A DNA stretch of 64,000 bases from Acidobacteriota bacterium. Its GTDB lineage: Bacteria > Acidobacteriota > Vicinamibacteria > Vicinamibacterales > UBA2999. The position numbers and the translations under genes are program-made. Below the pieces are notes generated by a model, which had not been told where the DNA came from, did no database searches, and worked only from the letters and a program-made list of their open reading frames with translations. The stretch spans positions 57,071-121,070 of the forward strand of contig JAUSDY010000104.1 of NCBI GenBank assembly GCA_030650395.1, given 5' to 3'. Positions 4,880 to 40,170 of the stretch are shown here, piece after piece (the first letter of the stretch is position 1; the number at the start of each line of letters is the position of its first letter).

Positions 4880-6292
4880 GTGCGTACGGTGCCTGAGGTG
4901 CCTAGGGGGTTGGTGCCGGTGCTATTCTGGCCCGTGCCTGATTTTCGACTGATTCCCGCGATCGACGCGCTTCGACAACGTGACGGTGTGCGTGCGCTTG
5001 AAGCGACGTTTGGCGCCGACGCCACCACCGACGCCCTCCGCGTTGGCGCGGAGCAACTGCGCGGCGCCATTGCATCCGGGGCCGGGCCGTCGAATGCCGA
5101 ATCAGCCGCTGCCCAAATCGAACAGGCCGCCGCAACCTCGCTCACCGTGCGGGCGCGCGGGTCGTTGCGGCCCGTCATCAATGCCACCGGCGTCATCATC
5201 CACACCAACCTCGGGCGGGCGCCGATTGCGCCCGCGGCGCTCGAGAGGCTGGCGGAGGTTGCGAAGGGCTACTCGAACCTCGAATACGACTTGTCTGAGG
5301 GCGCGCGCGGATCACGCAGCGTGCATGCCGAATCGCTCATCACCGCGCTCACCGGCGCCGAGGCGGCGATCGTCGTCAACAACAATGCCGCGGCGATCCT
5401 GCTGATCCTCACCGGGCTCGCCGAGGGCCGCGAGGTGCTGATTTCGCGCGGCGAGCTGGTCGAGATCGGCGGCGGCTTCCGCGTCCCCGACGTGATGCGG
5501 CAGTCGGGCGCCGTGCTGCGGGAGATCGGCACCACCAACCGCACCCGCGTCAACGACTACACCTCGGCGGTATCGCCGAACACCGCGATGTTCCTGCGGG
5601 TGCACCCATCGAACTTCCGCATCGAGGGATTCACCGAGCGGCCGTCGCTGGCCGAGCTGATCGCCGGCGCGCAGGCGATGCGCGTGCCGGTGATCGAGGA
5701 CCTCGGCAGCGGCTGCCTGGTCAGCGACCTGGCAGATGAGCCGACGGTGCAGGCGTCGATCGAAGCCGGCGTCGACCTCGTCTGCTTCAGCGGCGACAAG
5801 ATGCTGGGCGGGCCGCAGGCCGGCATCATCGCGGGCAAGACAGCTCTCGTCGATCGGCTGCGCGCGCACCCGCTGATGCGGGCGCTCCGGGTCGACAAGC
5901 TCACCTACGCGGTTCTCGAAGCGACGCTGGCGGAGTACGTGGCCGGTCGCGCCGCCGCTACCGTTCCGGTGCAGCGCATGCTGCACGCCAGCGCCGAAGA
6001 GATCGAAGAGCGCGCGCGGGCGCTTGGCGATCGCCTGGCCGCCGGCGGCTGGAACGTGGCGCTCGTCAGCGGATCGTCGGCGGTTGGCGGCGGCAGCGCA
6101 CCCGGCCTCGGGCTTGCGACGGTGCTCCTGACGATTCAGCGTGAAGGACAGTCGGCGTCGGCCACCGAAGCGTGGCTGCGGACGTTGGACCCGCCGGTCA
6201 TTGCGAGGATCGAGAACGACCGCGTCGTGTTGGACTTACGGACCGTACTTGCCGAGCAGGATGACGCGCTGACGCGCGTGTTCGGGGTCTAG
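4880..6292 (+). CDS. selA: L-seryl-tRNA(Sec) selenium transferase
   Basis: SelA-like translation throughout (NATGVIIHTNLGRAP, FSGDKMLGGPQAGIIAGK). The GTG at 4880 lies inside a GGTGCC repeat, so a GTG at 4934 (VPDFRLIPAIDAL) is the more likely start. Confidence 0.88.
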   Translation: MRTVPEVPRGLVPVLFWPVPDFRLIPAIDALRQRDGVRALEATFGADATTDALRVGAEQLRGAIASGAGPSNAESAAAQIEQAAATSLTVRARGSLRPVINATGVIIHTNLGRAPIAPAALERLAEVAKGYSNLEYDLSEGARGSRSVHAESLITALTGAEAAIVVNNNAAAILLILTGLAEGREVLISRGELVEIGGGFRVPDVMRQSGAVLREIGTTNRTRVNDYTSAVSPNTAMFLRVHPSNFRIEGFTERPSLAELIAGAQAMRVPVIEDLGSGCLVSDLADEPTVQASIEAGVDLVCFSGDKMLGGPQAGIIAGKTALVDRLRAHPLMRALRVDKLTYAVLEATLAEYVAGRAAATVPVQRMLHASAEEIEERARALGDRLAAGGWNVALVSGSSAVGGGSAPGLGLATVLLTIQREGQSASATEAWLRTLDPPVIARIENDRVVLDLRTVLAEQDDALTRVFGV

Positions 6293-7782
6293 AAGATAGT
6301 GCTGATCGAGGCTTGCGCGAACGCGATGAGCTTCGCGGGCAGCACGCCGAGGTAGAGGATGCCAATTAATGACAGCACCAGGCCTGCCATCGCAATCCTG
6401 CTGATCTGCGCCGGCACCGGCCGCGCGTCACGCTCGGTCATGTACATCATCACCACGATGCGCAGGTAGAAGAAGACCGAGACAACGCTCGAAAGTACGC
6501 CGATGATCGCCAGGCCGTAGTAGTCGGATCCGATCGCGGCGCTGAACACGTACCACTTTGCGATGAAGCCCGCCGTCGGCGGGAAGCCGCCGAGCGACAG
6601 CAGGAAGAACGTCATCAGCGTGGCCAGCCCCGGATGGCTGTGCCACAGGCCCGCATAGTCGCGCAGGTCGTCATTGGCGCGCTCGCGCGTGCCGAGCAGC
6701 GCAATCACGCCGAACGCGCCGAGGTTGGTGAGCGAGTACGCCGCCAGGTAGAACAGGATCGCGGCCTTGCCCGTTTCGCCACCCGCGCCGCTGCCGGCGA
6801 CCAGGGCGGTCAGCATGTAGCCACCGTGTGCAATGCTCGAATACGCCAGCATGCGCTTGAGGCTGGTCTGCGCCACCCCCACCACCGTCCCCAGGATCAT
6901 CGTCGCTGCCGCAATCAGCGCCAGCACCGGGGCCCAGTCGGCCACCATCGGGCCGAGCGCGTTCAGAAACACGCGCACGAACGCGGCCACGGCCGCGGCC
7001 TTGACGCCGGTGGACATGAAACCGGTGACGACGGCCGGCGCGCCCTCGTAGGCGTCGGGCGACCACATGTGGAACGGCACCGCGGCAATCTTGAACGCGA
7101 AGCCCACGATCAGCAGTCCGACGCCGAGCAGGATCAGCGGGTTGCCGCTCATCGACTGCGCGGCAATCGACGAGCTGATCGCCTCGAGGTGTGTGCTCCG
7201 GGTCACGCCGTAGAGGAACGCGATGCCGTAGAGGAAGAACGAGCTGGCAAACGCGCCAAGCAGGAAGTACTTGAATGCGGCTTCGGTACCGGCGGCGTTG
7301 TCCCTGCGGATGCCGGTGAGCACGTAGACCCCGATCGACATCGTTTCGAGTGCCAGGAAGATCAGCAGCAGGTCGTTGGCCTGCGCCATCAGCATCATGC
7401 CGAAAATCGAGAACAGCAGGATCGCGTAGTACTCGCCCGCGGGCAGCCCGTCACGCTCGATCGTCTGGCTCGAGAAGATCACGGTGATGATGCCGGTGAC
7501 GGCGATCACGCACACCACGAACAGCGAGAAGTTGTCGGCCGTGACCACGCCGAAACTGGTGGCGTTGCGATCCCACAGCGACGGATTCCCCCCGAACAGC
7601 GTCGTCAATGACGAGGGCCAGGGCGCGGACGTGACCAGGGCGCCCAGCAGCCCGATGATCGCGAGCCCGCCGATGGGCATCTTCTCGCCGCGGTCGCGAA
7701 ACGCCTCGGCGAGCAGCACCACGAGGCCGGCGAGGGCCACGCAGAGCATCGGGATGACCGCGTCGAATTGACTGGTGATCAT
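6289..7782 (-). CDS. nuoN: NADH-quinone oxidoreductase subunit N
   Basis: Polytopic antiporter-like subunit at the last position of the nuo cluster. Its start overlaps the nuoM stop (ATGA). Confidence 0.9.
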   Translation of the reverse strand: MITSQFDAVIPMLCVALAGLVVLLAEAFRDRGEKMPIGGLAIIGLLGALVTSAPWPSSLTTLFGGNPSLWDRNATSFGVVTADNFSLFVVCVIAVTGIITVIFSSQTIERDGLPAGEYYAILLFSIFGMMLMAQANDLLLIFLALETMSIGVYVLTGIRRDNAAGTEAAFKYFLLGAFASSFFLYGIAFLYGVTRSTHLEAISSSIAAQSMSGNPLILLGVGLLIVGFAFKIAAVPFHMWSPDAYEGAPAVVTGFMSTGVKAAAVAAFVRVFLNALGPMVADWAPVLALIAAATMILGTVVGVAQTSLKRMLAYSSIAHGGYMLTALVAGSGAGGETGKAAILFYLAAYSLTNLGAFGVIALLGTRERANDDLRDYAGLWHSHPGLATLMTFFLLSLGGFPPTAGFIAKWYVFSAAIGSDYYGLAIIGVLSSVVSVFFYLRIVVMMYMTERDARPVPAQISRIAMAGLVLSLIGILYLGVLPAKLIAFAQASISTIF

Positions 7783-9383
7783 CGGGACACCGGAGCGGAA
7801 GGGTTCTGAACGGTTCTGAATGGTTCAGAAAGGTTCGGAAGGGTTCGGACCGGTTCGGAAGGGTTCGCCACGCGCACCGGCTGATGCAGCTGCACGCGAT
7901 CGACGATGCGCTGCACGGCCGGCTCCATGGGTTTCAGGAACACATTCGGGAACACGCCCATCAGGATGGCCGCCGCCGCCAGCGGACCAACGATGGCCCA
8001 TTCGCGGACCGACAGATCCGGCAACAGCTTGTTGTGATCGTTGGTCACGGTGCCGTAGAACACGCGCTGGAACATCCACAGCATGTAGACGGCCGAGAGG
8101 ATGACGCCGAGCGCGGCGATGATCACGAAGCGCTCGTCCCAGCGAAACGCGCCGAGCATGATCAGGAACTCGCCGATGAAGCCGTTCATGCCGGGCAGGC
8201 CGATCGACGACAGCGTGATGATCAAGGTCACCGCCGTAAACCGCGGCATCACGGCCTTGAGCCCGCCGAACTCGCTGATCAGGCGGGTGTGCCGCCGATC
8301 CGACAGCATGCCCACCAGGCAGAACAGCGCGCCGGTGCTGACGCCGTGCGCGAGCATTTGAAACGACGCGCCGTGCACGCCCTGCGTGTTCATGGCGGTG
8401 ATGCCGAGCACGACGAAGCCCATGTGGCTCACCGACGAGTACGCCACCAGCTTCTTCATGTCGGGCTGCACCATCGCCACGAGCGCGCCGTAGACAATCG
8501 CGATCACGGCCAGCGTCGCCAGCACCGGCGAGAACATCAACGCGGCGTCAGGAAACAGCGGGTAGGCGAAGCGGATCAAGCCGTAACCGCCCATCTTCAG
8601 CATCACGCCGGCCAGGATCACGGAGCCGGGCGTCGGCGCCTGGACGTGCGCATCCGGCAGCCACGTGTGGAACGGGAACAGCGGCACCTTGATGATGAAA
8701 GCGATCGTGAAGGCGAGGAAGAACCAGTACTGCGTGTCGGCTGGAATCTGCAGCTCGTAGAGCTTGAGCAGGTCGAAGCTGTACTCGCCGGTCATGGTGT
8801 GGTGGATCCACGACAGGCCGATGATGGCGACGAGCATCAGGACGCTGCCGGCCATGGTGTAGAGGATGAACTTCACCGCGGCGTAGATGCGCTGGTCGTA
8901 GCCCCAGATGCCGATCATGAAGTACATCGGGATCAGGACGAAGTCCCAGAAGATGTAGAACAGGAAGACATCGAGCGCGCAGAAGACGCCGATCATCGAC
9001 GCCTCGAGCAGCAGCATCAGGATCGAGAACTCCTTGACGTGCTTGTCGACGCTCACCCACCCTGAGAGCAGTGCAAGCGGCGTCAGGAAGCCGGTCAGCA
9101 CCAGCAGCAGCAGGCTGAGGCCGTCGATGCCGACGTAGTAGTCGATGCCAAACGACGGGATCCACGGGTGGCGCTCGACCAACTGGAACGCGGGCGCGTC
9201 AGCCGACGGGTCGAAGCCGGCCCACAGGGCCAGCGTCACCGCAAAGGCGACGAGCGACACCCCCAGCGCCAGGTTGCGGATCAAGCCGTCCTTCGAACCG
9301 TCACGGTTCGGAACGAACATCAGCAGCACGGCCCCGATGACGGGCAGCGTGATGGCGAGTGAAAGTAACGGCAACCCGGTCAC
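7779..9383 (-). CDS. nuoM: NADH-quinone oxidoreductase subunit M, with a repeat-derived C-terminal tail
   Basis: NuoM-like translation (WLPDAHVQAPTPGSVILAG). The last roughly 30 aa (NPSEPVRTLPNLSEPFRTVQNPSAPVSR) are encoded by a 10-bp tandem repeat. Confidence 0.9.
   Translation of the reverse strand: MTGLPLLSLAITLPVIGAVLLMFVPNRDGSKDGLIRNLALGVSLVAFAVTLALWAGFDPSADAPAFQLVERHPWIPSFGIDYYVGIDGLSLLLLVLTGFLTPLALLSGWVSVDKHVKEFSILMLLLEASMIGVFCALDVFLFYIFWDFVLIPMYFMIGIWGYDQRIYAAVKFILYTMAGSVLMLVAIIGLSWIHHTMTGEYSFDLLKLYELQIPADTQYWFFLAFTIAFIIKVPLFPFHTWLPDAHVQAPTPGSVILAGVMLKMGGYGLIRFAYPLFPDAALMFSPVLATLAVIAIVYGALVAMVQPDMKKLVAYSSVSHMGFVVLGITAMNTQGVHGASFQMLAHGVSTGALFCLVGMLSDRRHTRLISEFGGLKAVMPRFTAVTLIITLSSIGLPGMNGFIGEFLIMLGAFRWDERFVIIAALGVILSAVYMLWMFQRVFYGTVTNDHNKLLPDLSVREWAIVGPLAAAAILMGVFPNVFLKPMEPAVQRIVDRVQLHQPVRVANPSEPVRTLPNLSEPFRTVQNPSAPVSR
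7791..7871. repeat. 10-bp tandem repeat GGTTC[T/G/A]GAAN, about 7-8 units
   Basis: Consecutive units ggttctgaac, ggttctgaat, ggttcagaaa, ggttcggaag, ggttcggacc, ggttcggaag and ggttcgccac are read from 7802 to 7871. Confidence 0.9.
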
Positions 9384-36512: not shown

Positions 36513-36885
36513 CGTCAGTGAAATCGCACCGGAGGGTGGCGATTATGTCATGGCTGCATTACTTTCGCTACGCGACTGGATCGCCCCCGGCAACGCCGCC
36601 ACCGCGCTCAAGCTCGCGCCGCCTGATGGACAGCCTGCTGTAACAGTGTCGCGGACCGATCCGGTCGCGTCTATCGGCGTGCGGCTCGGCCTAATCGCGA
36701 TTGCCTCGTTTGCGACGTGCCGGCGGGGCGCAAGATGAGGGGCGATCCCATCATCGCGCTGCGCGCCGAATGAGATCGGCGGCGTCAGACACGGGGAACC
36801 CTCTCCTTGAAGAGGCAAGAGCCACCTAGCGGCCTTCCAAAGATGATCTTCAGTTTGGTATCTGTGACCCTCTTGGCGACAACTT

Positions 36886-37234
36886 ATGAGTTTGGAGAGT
36901 AATCGCGCCAAAGAAGCGCTGACGGAGCTCGTCTCAGAGGCGAAAGGCTACCACGCTCACCTCATCGTCGAGCGAATCGTCGTCAAATATCGACGAGATT
37001 GCATCCACCGAGGCTGAGGCCGGAATCGCTGCGGCGGCAGCCGCAGCTAACAAGGCTGGCGTGACCATCGCCAAGGCGTCAAACTATGTGGCTAGTACGA
37101 GTGCTGCCGTTGCCGAAACGGCTAGGCAGCTTCAGGAGTCGATGGCGGCTGCTAATAAGGATACGAAAGAGGTCGATACAACGCTTCGCGAGATCATCGA
37201 CTTCGTCGACCACCGAGTTGTAAATCGCTCATGA
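36886..37234 (+). pseudogene. Split small helical ORF at the head of the low-GC operon (two frames)
   Basis: Frame A runs from the ATG at 36886 to the TGA at 37017 (43 aa). Frame B is open from 36923 to the TGA at 37232-37234 (Ala-rich helical, ...TLREIIDFVDHRVVNRS). Its only canonical in-frame start before the late ATG is the GTG at 37061. The frame B stop overlaps the next ATG (ATGA). Confidence 0.35.
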
Positions 37235-37665
37235 CGCAGAGCTCGCACCGTCATGACCTGATCATCGGAATGACGTTGGCTGAGGTTTTTCTGCTAGCGT
37301 TCTTGGTAGGGTGGCTTGGGACGCGGAAGGAAATAAGACTCATCACAATCAGTGCTGCTGATCTAAGGCGACAGAACGCCGAGCTCGCCGCGAATCTCGC
37401 TAAGACGCAAGCGGAGCGAGACGAACTACAGAAACGCTATGACGAACTATTAAAGAGCTTGCCTGGTCGAGACCCACGCACTGGCGAATGGATTCGCTTT
37501 GGTGAGAAGCCTAAGTGTAGTGTGGAGGACAACGTCCTGATTCACGCTTCGATGCGAGGAGGAATCGGCGAGGTTCGGCTCTTACAGCACTTCGAATCTT
37601 GGATGACTGACAGCTCGTTTTGCCCAATTCGTCACAGGCAAACCGCAATGCCGCACTGGTGCTAG
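37231..37665 (+). CDS. Membrane-anchored coiled-coil protein (orphan)
   Basis: The 144-aa product has an N-terminal TM helix (LIIGMTLAEVFLLAFLVGWLG) and a coiled-coil segment (LRRQNAELAANLAKTQAERDELQKRYDELLK). G+C is visibly lower than in the flanks. Confidence 0.6.
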   Translation: MTQSSHRHDLIIGMTLAEVFLLAFLVGWLGTRKEIRLITISAADLRRQNAELAANLAKTQAERDELQKRYDELLKSLPGRDPRTGEWIRFGEKPKCSVEDNVLIHASMRGGIGEVRLLQHFESWMTDSSFCPIRHRQTAMPHWC

Positions 37666-37683
37666 GATCAACCCAGTTTCGAT

Positions 37684-38379
37684 ATGGCAACTCCAACCAA
37701 GGCAACGCTCACCGCCATTCAAGGAGAGTTCGAGATAAAGAGCCAATTCTCGAACAACTTCTGGGGTCTGCTACACGACGTTCCGACCTTCTATAACGCC
37801 TTATTGAACAGCTTAGGACGCTTTGGCGTCTCACTATCATCGGTGAGAATCGAAGGCGGTGACGGCACCCTTGGTGGCGTCAATGTCAGCACGTGGCTTG
37901 TCGACTTTGGGTATCTCCTCAAGATTCATATCGACGGCGTAACCCTTAGCTGCCCCCGGACTGATAGAGTGGATTTGAGCGGACTGACGGAGTTGCTGGC
38001 GGCCGTTGACAGTCTTGTGATTGGCCTGACGGATATTCCTTGCTGGCGCTCTCACGTAGCTAGCGTTTCTGTTCATGCCAAGACGTCGGAGAGTCCACGG
38101 GAAATAACGTCGCGATTCGTGAATACTCCCAACTTCCCACCAAAATCGATTGTTGGATCTGGGTTTGTCGTCTATTTCACGCCGAAGGAAAACGTTGCGC
38201 AGTCCGGATTGACCGTTGACTTATCCGCGATCAGCACGGAGGCCCTATTCGTTAAGTACTCGACGACGCTCGTCGGTGACATCGCAATGGCCGCAGTGCC
38301 AACGATGGTTAGTTCTGCGATGTCGACCGCACTGAATTGTGTCGGCTTTGAATTAGCCGACCTTGATGCTCTGATATAG
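37684..38379 (+). CDS. Orphan 231-aa protein
   Basis: It starts 18 nt after the previous stop and I recognised no catalytic motif. The N-terminal pattern AIQGEFEIKSQF faintly recalls the uncharacterised TIGR04255-type families; this is from memory and unverified. Confidence 0.55.
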   Translation: MATPTKATLTAIQGEFEIKSQFSNNFWGLLHDVPTFYNALLNSLGRFGVSLSSVRIEGGDGTLGGVNVSTWLVDFGYLLKIHIDGVTLSCPRTDRVDLSGLTELLAAVDSLVIGLTDIPCWRSHVASVSVHAKTSESPREITSRFVNTPNFPPKSIVGSGFVVYFTPKENVAQSGLTVDLSAISTEALFVKYSTTLVGDIAMAAVPTMVSSAMSTALNCVGFELADLDALI

Positions 38380-38381
38380 CC

Positions 38382-38927
38382 ATGTTGGGACAGTACTTCG
38401 ACCAGGTCACGCCCGGGGTCAGCCGCCCGCGCTTCCGTCGAGAGGCGGAGAGACGTAGCCAATCCTCCGGACCGGCCCGCTCTATCTCTGCGCGACCGTG
38501 GAATACAGGTGTCTTGCGAGTGGTGGTGTCGTCTGGAGAACCATCGCTAGAATGGCGAATTCAAAAACAACGCTCCCAGGAGCAGACTGCGGAGGGTTCG
38601 CTACTACACTCGATTCGCCATCTCTTGGAATCTGGAGAAGTCGAGAAAGCACGTGGAGCCCTAGAAGCAATTGGTGCCGAGACGACAGGGCAAGAGTTCC
38701 TTAGGCTCCGGAGGCTCCTTGGCCGTCCGACCGTCCGCGTTACAGCCGCGAATGAAAGGGACCACGCGGCAGACTTTGCATGGTTGGTCCAACACGCTGG
38801 GAATTATCACGGTCGTTGGGTCGCGCTTGCGAACGGCACGCTGTTGGGTGAAGCGAAGACGCTAGCGGCTCTTAGTGAGCTCATCGCTGCCGCAGCTGAT
38901 AGGCCTCTGGTAATACGGGTCGACTGA
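38382..38927 (+). CDS. Protein with DUF5678-like C-terminal domain
   Basis: It starts 2 nt after the previous stop. The C-terminal segment YHGRWVALANGTLLGEAKTLAALSELIAAAADRPLVIRV matches my recollection of the DUF5678 pattern (unverified). The Arg/Ser-rich N-terminal third makes the start uncertain. Confidence 0.5.
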   Translation: MLGQYFDQVTPGVSRPRFRREAERRSQSSGPARSISARPWNTGVLRVVVSSGEPSLEWRIQKQRSQEQTAEGSLLHSIRHLLESGEVEKARGALEAIGAETTGQEFLRLRRLLGRPTVRVTAANERDHAADFAWLVQHAGNYHGRWVALANGTLLGEAKTLAALSELIAAAADRPLVIRVD

Positions 38928-38929
38928 TC

Positions 38930-39382
38930 GTGCCACTAAACTTTGTCGACGGCAGCGCCTTCAGCGTGGGCCGGGCGCCTTATCTCGATTCGTTGCCAGG
39001 TTTCACCGACCGCTCAGCGAGAATCTGCATCTCAATGCGTGTTGCTGAGTTGAATTTTGATTCAACCGCCATAGTCGACACAGCTGCTCCTTGGTCGATA
39101 ATCGAACCCGAATTGGCCGAGAGTGCCGGCCTTTTGGAGCTCGAAGGAGTAGCGATTCCTATAAAGACTTGGTTCGGAACGGCCAAGGGGAAACTAGTGC
39201 CGGTGGCAATCACGCTTTTGGCCAAGGACGGCGTTCCTCTAAATCTAGAAGCTACGGTCTTCGTAAGCGCTGATTGGCCGAAGGGCTGGAACTTTATCGG
39301 GTACCACGGGTTTCTGGAGCGAATCAGGTTCGCAATCGAACCCTCACCCACCAACTACTTCTACTTCGGCCCAGCGGATTAG
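38930..39382 (+). CDS. Retropepsin-like (clan AA) aspartic-peptidase fold protein with DTA in place of DTG
   Basis: The GTG start is 2 nt after the previous stop. The segment STAIVDTAAPWSII aligns with the hydrophobic-D-T/S-G-A motif, and the C-terminal NFIGYHGFLERIRFAIEP resembles the dimer-interface end of bacterial retropepsin-like proteins. Confidence 0.55.
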   Translation: MPLNFVDGSAFSVGRAPYLDSLPGFTDRSARICISMRVAELNFDSTAIVDTAAPWSIIEPELAESAGLLELEGVAIPIKTWFGTAKGKLVPVAITLLAKDGVPLNLEATVFVSADWPKGWNFIGYHGFLERIRFAIEPSPTNYFYFGPAD

Positions 39383-39423
39383 CTAAATCAGATCCCTCGA
39401 TTGAATGCCGTCGAATTGGCCCG

Positions 39424-40170
39424 TTAGCCACTAATCATCCGCAGCAGACGGCTTACAGGATCGTAGAAACTATCGACGACGCGCTCCTTGAGGGGGATGA
39501 TCGCGTTATCGGTGATGTGAATGTGCTCGGGGCACACCGTGGTGCAGCACTTGGTGATGTTGCAGTAGCCGATGTTGCTCTTGTCCTTGAGGTCGGCCAA
39601 CCGGTCGTCGGTGTCGAGCGGGTGCATCTCGAGCGCCGCCGCGTAGACGAAGAAGCGCGGCCCGATGAACTCTTCGTGCTTGTCGTGGTCGCGCAGCACG
39701 TGGCAGACGTCCTGGCACAGGAAGCACTCGATGCACTTGCGGAATTCCTGGACGCGGTCGATGTCTTGCTGCGCCATCCGCCAGGTGCCGTCGGGGGCAT
39801 CGGGCTTGCGCGGCTTGAACTTCTTCAAGCCTTTCTTGGTGCGGAAGTTCCACGACACGTCGGTCACGAGGTCCTTGATCAGCGGGAACGTGCGCATCGG
39901 CTCCACGGTGACCGGCTCGTCGAGGTTGATCGAATTCAACCGGCTCATGCACATCAGGCGCGGCTTGCCGTTGATTTCGGCGGAGCACGATCCACACTTT
40001 CCCGCTTTGCAGTTCCAGCGGCACGCGAGGTCCGGCGCCTGCTCCGCCTGGATCTTGTGCACCGCGTCGAGCACGACCATGCCTTCGGAGATTTCGGTCG
40101 TGTAGTTCTTGAACGCGCCGGCGCCCCCGCCGGGCTCGCTTCTCCAGATGCGAAAGGTGGCCTGGCTCAC
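39424..40170 (-). CDS. sdhB: Succinate dehydrogenase / fumarate reductase iron-sulfur subunit
   Basis: Cys clusters are present (CRWNCKAGKCGSC; CIECFLCQDVC; CNITKCCTTVCP). Confidence 0.9.
   Translation of the reverse strand: MSQATFRIWRSEPGGGAGAFKNYTTEISEGMVVLDAVHKIQAEQAPDLACRWNCKAGKCGSCSAEINGKPRLMCMSRLNSINLDEPVTVEPMRTFPLIKDLVTDVSWNFRTKKGLKKFKPRKPDAPDGTWRMAQQDIDRVQEFRKCIECFLCQDVCHVLRDHDKHEEFIGPRFFVYAAALEMHPLDTDDRLADLKDKSNIGYCNITKCCTTVCPEHIHITDNAIIPLKERVVDSFYDPVSRLLRMISG

Follow-up and report, generated by a model that had tools for sequence, protein, structure and literature searches.

The window analysed here is a stretch of 64,000 nucleotides from an Acidobacteriota bacterium (GenBank assembly GCA_030650395.1, contig JAUSDY010000104.1). 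The list of its open reading frames (ORFs) places three co-directional, tightly packed genes on the plus strand at positions 37684-39382, which are referred to below as A, B and C (Table 1). B is predicted to encode a protein with a domain of the DUF5678 family, and C a retropepsin-fold protein that carries Asp-Thr-Ala (DTA) at the position of the Asp-Thr-Gly (DTG) motif. A spacing of 2 nt separates A from B, and again 2 nt separate the stop of B (TGA, ending at 38927) from the GTG start of C at 38930. This arrangement is best explained as a translationally coupled A-B-C operon with the B-C pair as its conserved core. An original prediction, made from the letters of the window and its ORF list, had described B and C as a two-gene arrangement. 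Both ORFs and their spacing of 2 nt were recovered as given, and all of the quoted peptide strings were found, AIVDTAAPWSII and NFIGYHGFLERI in C and HGRWVALANGTLLGEAKTLAALSELI...PLVIRV as the C-terminus of B. The pair itself proved to be conserved, but the unit in the window consists of three genes, with A ending 2 nt before B.

Table 1. Positions of the A-B-C module and of the regions recognised in its proteins, in window coordinates.
Feature	Position	Strand	Description or basis
Low-GC island with A-B-C	36700..39450		composition profile
Gene A	37684..38379	+	231 aa; uncharacterised; first gene of the A-B-C module
Gene B	38382..38927	+	ATG start; 181 aa; predicted DUF5678-domain partner protein
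B residues 1-53, variable N-terminal region, predicted disordered	38382..38540	+	AF2 pLDDT <50; similar only to the L002 orthologue
B residues 56-113, predicted helical region with conserved TPR-like hairpin	38547..38720	+	AF2 helices 56-66, 70-83, 87-97 and 104-113; conserved columns
B residues 114-128, predicted exposed linker	38721..38765	+	AF2 pLDDT ~72, no secondary structure
B residues 129-179, predicted DUF5678 domain, helix-strand-strand-helix-strand	38766..38918	+	AF2 pLDDT >=93
Gene C	38930..39382	+	GTG start; 150 aa; single-domain retropepsin-fold protein, putative aspartic peptidase
C residues 50-53, D-T-A-A, putative active-site loop (equivalent of retropepsin D-T-G-A)	39077..39088	+	gac aca gct gct; aligned to DTGA of Ddi1
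C residues 121-134, NFIGYHGFLERIRF, F-I-G motif and following helix/strand	39290..39331	+	most conserved block of the family

Domain assignments of C and B

Judged by its motifs and predicted fold, C belongs to clan AA. The catalytic loop of this clan has the signature hydrophobic-hydrophobic-Asp-Thr/Ser-Gly-Ala/Ser. In C, the corresponding loop lies within AIVDTAAPWSII (residues 47-58) and reads I-V-D-T-A-A; Asp, Thr and the following Ala are thus kept, and Ala stands in place of the signature Gly (DTA, nt 39077-39085). The second hallmark of the clan, hydrophobic-hydrophobic-Gly, is present as F122-I123-G124 at the beginning of NFIGYHGFLERI (residues 121-132). G124 was invariant in alignment A1, as were Y125, G127, L129, R131, I132, R133 and F134 of the same block.

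A homologue search with C returned 82 homologues, down to E = 5e-30, and in an exhaustive HMMER search, the C profile matched 940 clusters (50% identity) at E <= 1e-3. The family is estimated to comprise about 650-940 clusters at 50% identity, mostly from Acidobacteriota. Residues 46-93 of C itself scored 18.9 bits against gag-asp_proteas (PF13975; gathering threshold 28.2) and 18.7 bits against Asp_protease_2 (PF13650; gathering threshold 24.3), both below threshold, and a subgroup of its homologues with 43-48% identity to C carries PF13650/PF13975. A profile of 45 family members detected the retropepsin domain of Ddi1 in the Protein Data Bank (PDB) at E ~0.01, the DT[GA]A of the family being aligned with the catalytic DTGA of Ddi1. 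The AlphaFold2 (AF2) model of C reached a mean predicted local distance difference test score (pLDDT) of 85.5 and a predicted template-modelling score (pTM) of 0.79. When this model was compared with the PDB by Foldseek, all of the top 50 matches were retropepsins (E 7e-5 to 5e-4), starting with APRc and followed by the proteases of HIV-1 and feline immunodeficiency virus (FIV). The best match, PDB entry 5c9f, covered 136 columns at 16% identity (E = 6.7e-5, TM 0.58/0.65); it represents APRc (RC1339), a retropepsin-like aspartic protease from Rickettsia conorii whose structures are deposited as 5c9f and 5c9b (PMC4140852). The Ddi1 profile match, the AF2 model and these fold matches bear out the retropepsin-like character that had been read from the sequence. 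C is filed here as a divergent retropepsin-like family, and not as a member of PF13650/PF13975, because it falls below the Pfam thresholds and does not carry the signature Gly. In a public annotation, C (P0001) is called from an internal ATG at position 39035 and has 115 aa. Since homologues conserve the N-terminal 35 residues, C likely starts with the GTG at 38930.

For B, family-level sequence evidence and the predicted fold argue that the protein carries a DUF5678 domain. Residues 141-177 matched PF18929 (DUF5678) with 14.0 bits (E = 0.045), below the gathering threshold of 23.2. Five of six scanned B-like homologues scored 20.2-22.7 bits against the same cut-off, and the closest orthologue, P0084, scored 13; P0084 is a full-length orthologue with 49% identity, encoded in a syntenic metagenome-assembled genome (MAG). 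A word-indexed homologue search with whole B returned one relative only. The wider family was reached with a profile of the B core, which retrieved 110 proteins, many of them with a precomputed PF18929 assignment or the NCBI name “DUF5678 domain-containing protein.” In a Foldseek search of the predicted viral structures in BFVD with the AF2 model of B, ranks 2 and 4 were taken by Pandoravirus “DUF5678 domain-containing proteins” (A0A2U7UD66 and A0A2U7UG46; probability 0.96-0.97, root-mean-square deviation 3.1-3.7 over 65-68 columns). Their weak E-values (0.17-0.26) are attributed to the shortness of the DUF5678 domain. Annotated DUF5678 proteins are thus present in Pandoravirus genomes, and among the named matches they come closest in structure to the C-terminal domain of B. 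A Foldseek search of the PDB with the B model gave no significant match, and a profile search of the PDB gave weak matches to tetratricopeptide repeat (TPR) proteins only. The homologue scores, the precomputed names and the BFVD matches substantiate the original proposal that the C-terminus of B resembles DUF5678. For both proteins, the families named in the original prediction were the right ones, with support through homologues, whereas the scores of the window proteins themselves stay below threshold.

Within the predicted DUF5678 domain, Trp134 and Trp146 are invariant, the latter as part of a GxWVAL motif. The linker preceding it has Pro115 in at least 90% of sequences and an invariant Asp127 (alignment A3). 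Further upstream, the hairpin has the consensus IRxL...ARxLxEAL...L in the alignment columns, and its TPR-like nature is suggested by a TPR_14 match below cut-off in the homologue of locus L006 as well as by weak TPR matches in the PDB by sequence and fold. At the C-terminus, most B proteins share the pattern P-[LFM]-[LVI]-H-x-[ILF], in which the His is highly conserved. In the window, residues 175-181 (PLVIRVD) correspond to positions 38904-38924, and the His is replaced by Ile or Val both here and in locus L002.

The B-C gene pair and its catalytic-loop variants

A scan with the C profile over one genome per GTDB species yielded 80 loci, which, together with earlier loci and the window, gave a set of 96 C-like genes. 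Most of these loci are found in MAGs of Acidobacteriota (Thermoanaerobaculia, Vicinamibacterales), and a few belong to Nitrospira, Methylomirabilia, Binatia, Gammaproteobacteria and Paracoccaceae. A B-like gene with the homologous core lies directly upstream and on the same strand in 94 of the 96 cases, at an estimated gap of -12 to +30 nt; ORF boundaries in high-GC loci were taken as longest ORFs corrected by profile coordinates. The two C genes without upstream B are located at a contig edge (L073) and in a genuine solo arrangement (L020). A reverse scan from B in metagenomes gave 35 loci. Sufficient sequence is available downstream of 30 B genes, and C follows in about 27 of these cases; of the other three, two keep remnants of C. 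That DUF5678 is often encoded beside such proteases, as the original prediction had it, was assessed within the C/B family. Within this family, the pairing of B and C is close to obligatory, and the proposal that they form a conserved gene pair held in both directions.

The pair also behaves as a unit when it is multiplied. Tandem arrays duplicate B and C together, for example as three copies in L016, and in genomes with two paralogous types of C, each C has its own adjacent B. Many MAGs contain two pairs at separate loci; those of Acidobacteriota with pairs at different conserved sites include L014/L045, L050/L063, L029/L066 and L038/L077. Two types can be distinguished: the “WS” pair is often located beside galK and usually has DTG, and the “PWC” pair lies between aspS and aroB and usually has DTA. 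A 330-aa protein (P0244) that appeared as a candidate B-C fusion was rejected, as its N-terminus resembles an over-extended high-GC ORF and not a B domain.

In the original prediction, the replacement of Gly by Ala was taken as a possible mark of an inactive pseudo-protease, and an alignment of homologues was suggested in order to see whether DTA is conserved or lineage-specific. Among the 96 genome-derived members, position 50 is Asp and position 55 is Trp without exception; position 51 is Thr in 95 and position 53 is Ala in 93, and only position 52 alternates between Gly (66) and Ala (30). A larger set of 226 C proteins, which includes representatives from the exhaustive HMMER search, contains DTG in 124 and DTA in 94 proteins, next to DTR (3), DPA (2) and DSG (1). 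TTA and HNQ are also among the low-frequency variants. The aligned Asp is kept in 224 of the 226 proteins, and DTA, which accounts for about 31-42% of the family, is not lineage-specific. On a neighbour-joining tree, at least seven switches between Gly and Ala occurred with no other change in the conserved core, a parsimony count that represents a rough lower bound. The DTA of the window is one such independent switch inside a mainly DTG clade.

The ratio of nonsynonymous to synonymous substitution rates (dN/dS) of DTA genes is 0.11-0.23, indicating purifying selection, with the underlying dS values partly saturated. In addition, the PWC clade, which is mostly DTA, keeps the conserved position aspS-[B-C]-aroB in 26 of its 33 members. 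Being common, repeatedly switched, under purifying selection and held at this conserved position, DTA is not the mark of a decaying gene. An assessment of the retroviral protease motif concluded that the residue at the Gly position need only be small and that the variant DTAAD is potentially active (PMC6058741). The idea of an inactive pseudo-protease is not supported as it was stated, given the share of DTA in the family, the repeated switches, the retention of Asp and Thr and the purifying selection. Instead, DTA looks like a normal, maintained and interchangeable state of the C family, without sign of degeneration. Catalysis best accounts for the near-absolute retention of Asp and Thr, which would be compatible with a structural role as well.

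Genomic context, gene A and decay of the module

In the window, the module lies in a low-GC island (53-58% GC versus 63-70% in the flanks), which is bordered by a minus-strand gene for a 167-aa protein on one side and by sdhB/sdhA on the other. A placement next to sdh genes is also found in L002 (MAG GCA_038919045.1), which harbours the closest relative of the window module. Scans of the island detected no tRNA, integrase or convincing flanking repeats at its ends, and nothing informative was obtained from scans for Rfam families, tRNAs, repeats, promoters and terminators. Scans of five island ORFs with PADLOC, NCBIfam and PHROGs gave nothing significant.

Gene A has a homologue in L001, where it likewise precedes B (E = 7e-13), and no match to A was found in Pfam, NCBIfam, PADLOC, PHROG or PDB sequences. 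Among 87 loci, 28 have an A-like gene, in each case directly upstream of B (alignment A5), which corresponds to 28 of the 96 modules with the window included. The window module thereby belongs to an A-B-C subclade. Within this subclade, a non-Gly loop in C occurs in four of five modules whose B protein does not have the C-terminal His, versus one of 23 with His. A coupling of this His to the Gly/Ala state of C was considered and dropped, as only the modules with gene A hint at it and the PWC clade contradicts it. Upstream of A, a low-GC stretch of 1.17 kb (36513-37683) is left without a gene in a public annotation of this sequence (L122). Two ORFs overlap there, one of 57 aa (37061-37234) and one of 144 aa (37231-37665), and the longer one would encode a hydrophobic N-terminal stretch, possibly a membrane helix, followed by a coiled-coil-like region. 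Both were dropped as candidate members of the module, being unconserved in other loci and uncalled in the public annotation; they may be island cargo, remnants or non-coding.

Across 137 modules, the immediate neighbours are mostly housekeeping genes, among them aroB (12), galK (10), aspS (6) and Sir2 (5), and searches for relatives on plasmids or viral contigs found none. The A-B-C subclade looks more mobile: it occupies a low-GC island in the window, has transposases as neighbours in L004 and L005, and adjoins integrase, resolvase and restriction-like genes in L001. In L001, integrase and resolvase genes lie upstream of the module, and the adjacent region (5667-9000) encodes a 561-aa protein with N6_N4_Mtase, weak Mrr_cat and NA-iREase1 matches as well as a DUF6602 protein and an SNase protein; this region has the look of a defence or mobile island.

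Both genes of the pair show decay. Beside an intact B, the C gene has suffered truncation, internal deletion or a frameshift in L002, L091, L104, L107 and L108. Conversely, B is frameshifted (L072) or shortened with loss of the hairpin (L047) beside an intact C, and orphan or degenerate B copies occur in L038 (5422-6180) and L077 (6864-7295). In L038, two B cores are fused in a single ORF of 252 aa just after a complete B-C pair, and the degenerate B of L077 is devoid of the invariant Trp of the GxWVAL motif. In L002, a comparison of positions 818-1534 with 38930-40170 of the window revealed that homology to C ends at about codon 66 and is followed by antisense sdhB from about residue 190. This junction reflects either a deletion that removed the 3' part of C together with the 3' end of sdhB, or a chimera of the MAG assembly. 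An asymmetric decay, in which C is lost and B is kept, was considered as evidence of toxicity and is weakened by the decay of B beside intact C and by the solo C.

Proposed mechanism, alternatives and known systems

We propose that C acts as a cytoplasmic, single-domain peptidase of retropepsin fold. As each chain of 150 aa provides one catalytic loop, a homodimer would be needed to build an active site with two Asp residues. B and C would act as a complex in which B contacts C via the DUF5678 domain and/or the hairpin and gates the protease, serves as its specific substrate, or does both. Retroviral proteases have a known preference for cleavage before Pro and, Pro115 of the linker being conserved, one might speculate that the linker is a docking or cleavage segment for the substrate cleft of C. 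The third residue of the catalytic loop would be functionally interchangeable between Gly and Ala, so that the DTA protein of the window would be a normal working member of its family. That C is a homodimeric aspartic protease of the cytoplasm, bound by B as its dedicated regulator and/or substrate, is the reading we favour; it is plausible, yet it falls a little short of what we would call probable.

Several observations weigh against this proposal. L020 presents an intact C without an adjacent B, the best 150 representatives include no fusion of B and C, and the role of A is left unexplained. All Pfam scores of the window's own B and C proteins are under the gathering thresholds. The strict conservation of Asp and Thr could reflect the structural “fireman's grip” in a non-catalytic binding protein, and the Gly-to-Ala change in the DTG motif of bovine pregnancy-associated glycoprotein 1 is said to abolish catalysis.

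The alternative raised in the original prediction, with the replacement of Gly by Ala in the loop in its favour, is a catalytically dead C, at least in its DTA form, which would serve as a peptide- or protein-binding module and work with B by binding alone. Inactive members of the pepsin family with changes in the catalytic loop provide a precedent, and the rare DTR, DPA, TTA and HNQ variants indicate that some members of the C family have probably lost catalysis. However, Asp and a near-invariant Thr are retained across both DTG and DTA lineages, and repeated switching in the absence of other core changes points to equivalence rather than to one-way loss. Moreover, Ala is the smallest possible replacement for Gly, and DTAAD was rated as potentially active (PMC6058741). 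On balance, a pure binding module is quite unlikely. The original prediction likened the arrangement to a toxin/antitoxin-like or protease/substrate pair, which we keep as hypotheses. In a type II toxin-antitoxin (TA)-like addiction module, C would be a growth-arresting protease toxin and B a labile, binding antitoxin that is perhaps degraded or cleaved to release C. Gene order, tight coupling and sizes fit (125-180 aa for the upstream partner and 145-152 aa for the downstream enzyme), as do the multiple copies per genome, the tandem arrays, the orphan or degenerate B genes and the five loci with a damaged C beside an intact B. The low-GC island of the window and the integrase, resolvase or transposase genes near the modules of L001 and L003-L005 agree with such a role. 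On the other hand, B has no DNA-binding or known antitoxin domain, and none of the three proteins matches a TA family in PADLOC, NCBIfam or Pfam. Most copies reside in conserved housekeeping synteny (aspS-[B-C]-aroB, galK-[B-C]), which indicates long vertical inheritance, no relatives turned up on plasmids or viral contigs, and no clear asymmetry of decay emerges once the damaged B genes of L072 and L047 and the intact solo C of L020 are taken into account. We consider an addiction module unlikely.

An anti-phage defence or abortive infection system, finally, would have B, or A together with B, sense the infection and release the C protease on host or phage targets. Such a system would suit the L001 module with its integrase, resolvase, methylase/Mrr-like/NA-iREase1 fusion, DUF6602 and SNase genes, the island of the window and the patchy taxonomic distribution outside of Acidobacteriota. 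It is difficult to reconcile with the missing PADLOC matches of A, B and C, with neighbourhoods dominated by aroB, galK, aspS and Sir2 and with the stable synteny, and we regard it as very unlikely.

The proposal of a protease with a dedicated partner can be extended beyond the module. DUF5678 may be the dedicated partner domain, be it inhibitor or antitoxin, activator or cleavable substrate, of an undescribed family of cytoplasmic retropepsin-like proteins, which would constitute a new system of regulated proteolysis or a TA-like system with DTA as a naturally functional alternative to DTG. This generalisation is doubtful at present. We know of no function for DUF5678, and to our knowledge few retropepsin-like proteases of bacteria have been characterised (APRc, RimB, SpoIIGA, PerP and the Rlo enzymes of Pseudomonas). 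In the literature searched, a single paper mentions DUF5678, in passing, and no paper was found that describes this domain or its pairing with a retropepsin, or that links retropepsins to antitoxins. The association of DUF5678 with a retropepsin, the optional gene A and the family-wide alternation of Gly and Ala appear to be undescribed. The near-obligate gene pair offers a concrete hypothesis for DUF5678, namely an aspartic protease as its partner. Likewise, the repeated Gly/Ala switching and the co-resident DTG and DTA paralogues amount to a natural experiment on the requirement of Gly for catalysis in the retropepsin fold. There are also consequences for annotation, as the C family lies just under the Pfam thresholds and the C protein of the window is publicly called with a truncated start.

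A comparison with known systems places the B-C pair between several of them. In type II TA systems, a tightly coupled two-gene operon with a small upstream partner, multiple copies, tandem duplication and occasional decay are likewise found; in contrast, the B-C pair has no known toxin or antitoxin domain and is mostly held in stable chromosomal synteny. The C-terminal domain of B is similar to PF18929 in sequence and predicted fold, to which B adds the TPR-like hairpin, the linker and the variable N-terminus. For C, the DTG subclade of its family matches both PF13650 and PF13975, and the window protein matches in the same region (residues 46-93). The window protein and most members of the DTA/PWC clade stay below the thresholds, and the C family has invariants of its own, such as W55 and the GYxGLLxRIRF block. 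Among solved structures, the C sequence profile reached only those of Ddi1 (2i1a, 4z2z), which differs from C as a eukaryotic multidomain shuttle protein and is similar to it in no more than the N-terminal half of the fold.

APRc comes from an intracellular pathogen; it is membrane-associated, processes itself and has the canonical Gly in its catalytic loop. It shares with C a single-domain bacterial retropepsin fold, predicted in the case of C, with one catalytic loop per chain. Unlike APRc, C has no hydrophobic N-terminal segment or anchor on reading its sequence, often carries DTA across its family and is paired with a DUF5678 gene. The closest functional analogy to the proposed role of C is found in Pseudomonas, where RimB belongs to the tripartite RimABK system, removes the glutamates that RimK adds to RpsF and stimulates RimK (PMC11957791). 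No sequence relationship between RimB and C was detected, its partner RimK is an ATP-grasp ligase rather than a DUF5678 protein, and fusions of RimB and RimK exist, whereas none of B and C appeared in the set considered above. What would be common to both is a cytoplasmic retropepsin-like endopeptidase that acts in complex with its partners, RimA and RimK in the one case and B in the other. Indeed, the bacterial A2 peptidases characterised to date involve other protein factors (PMC11957791).

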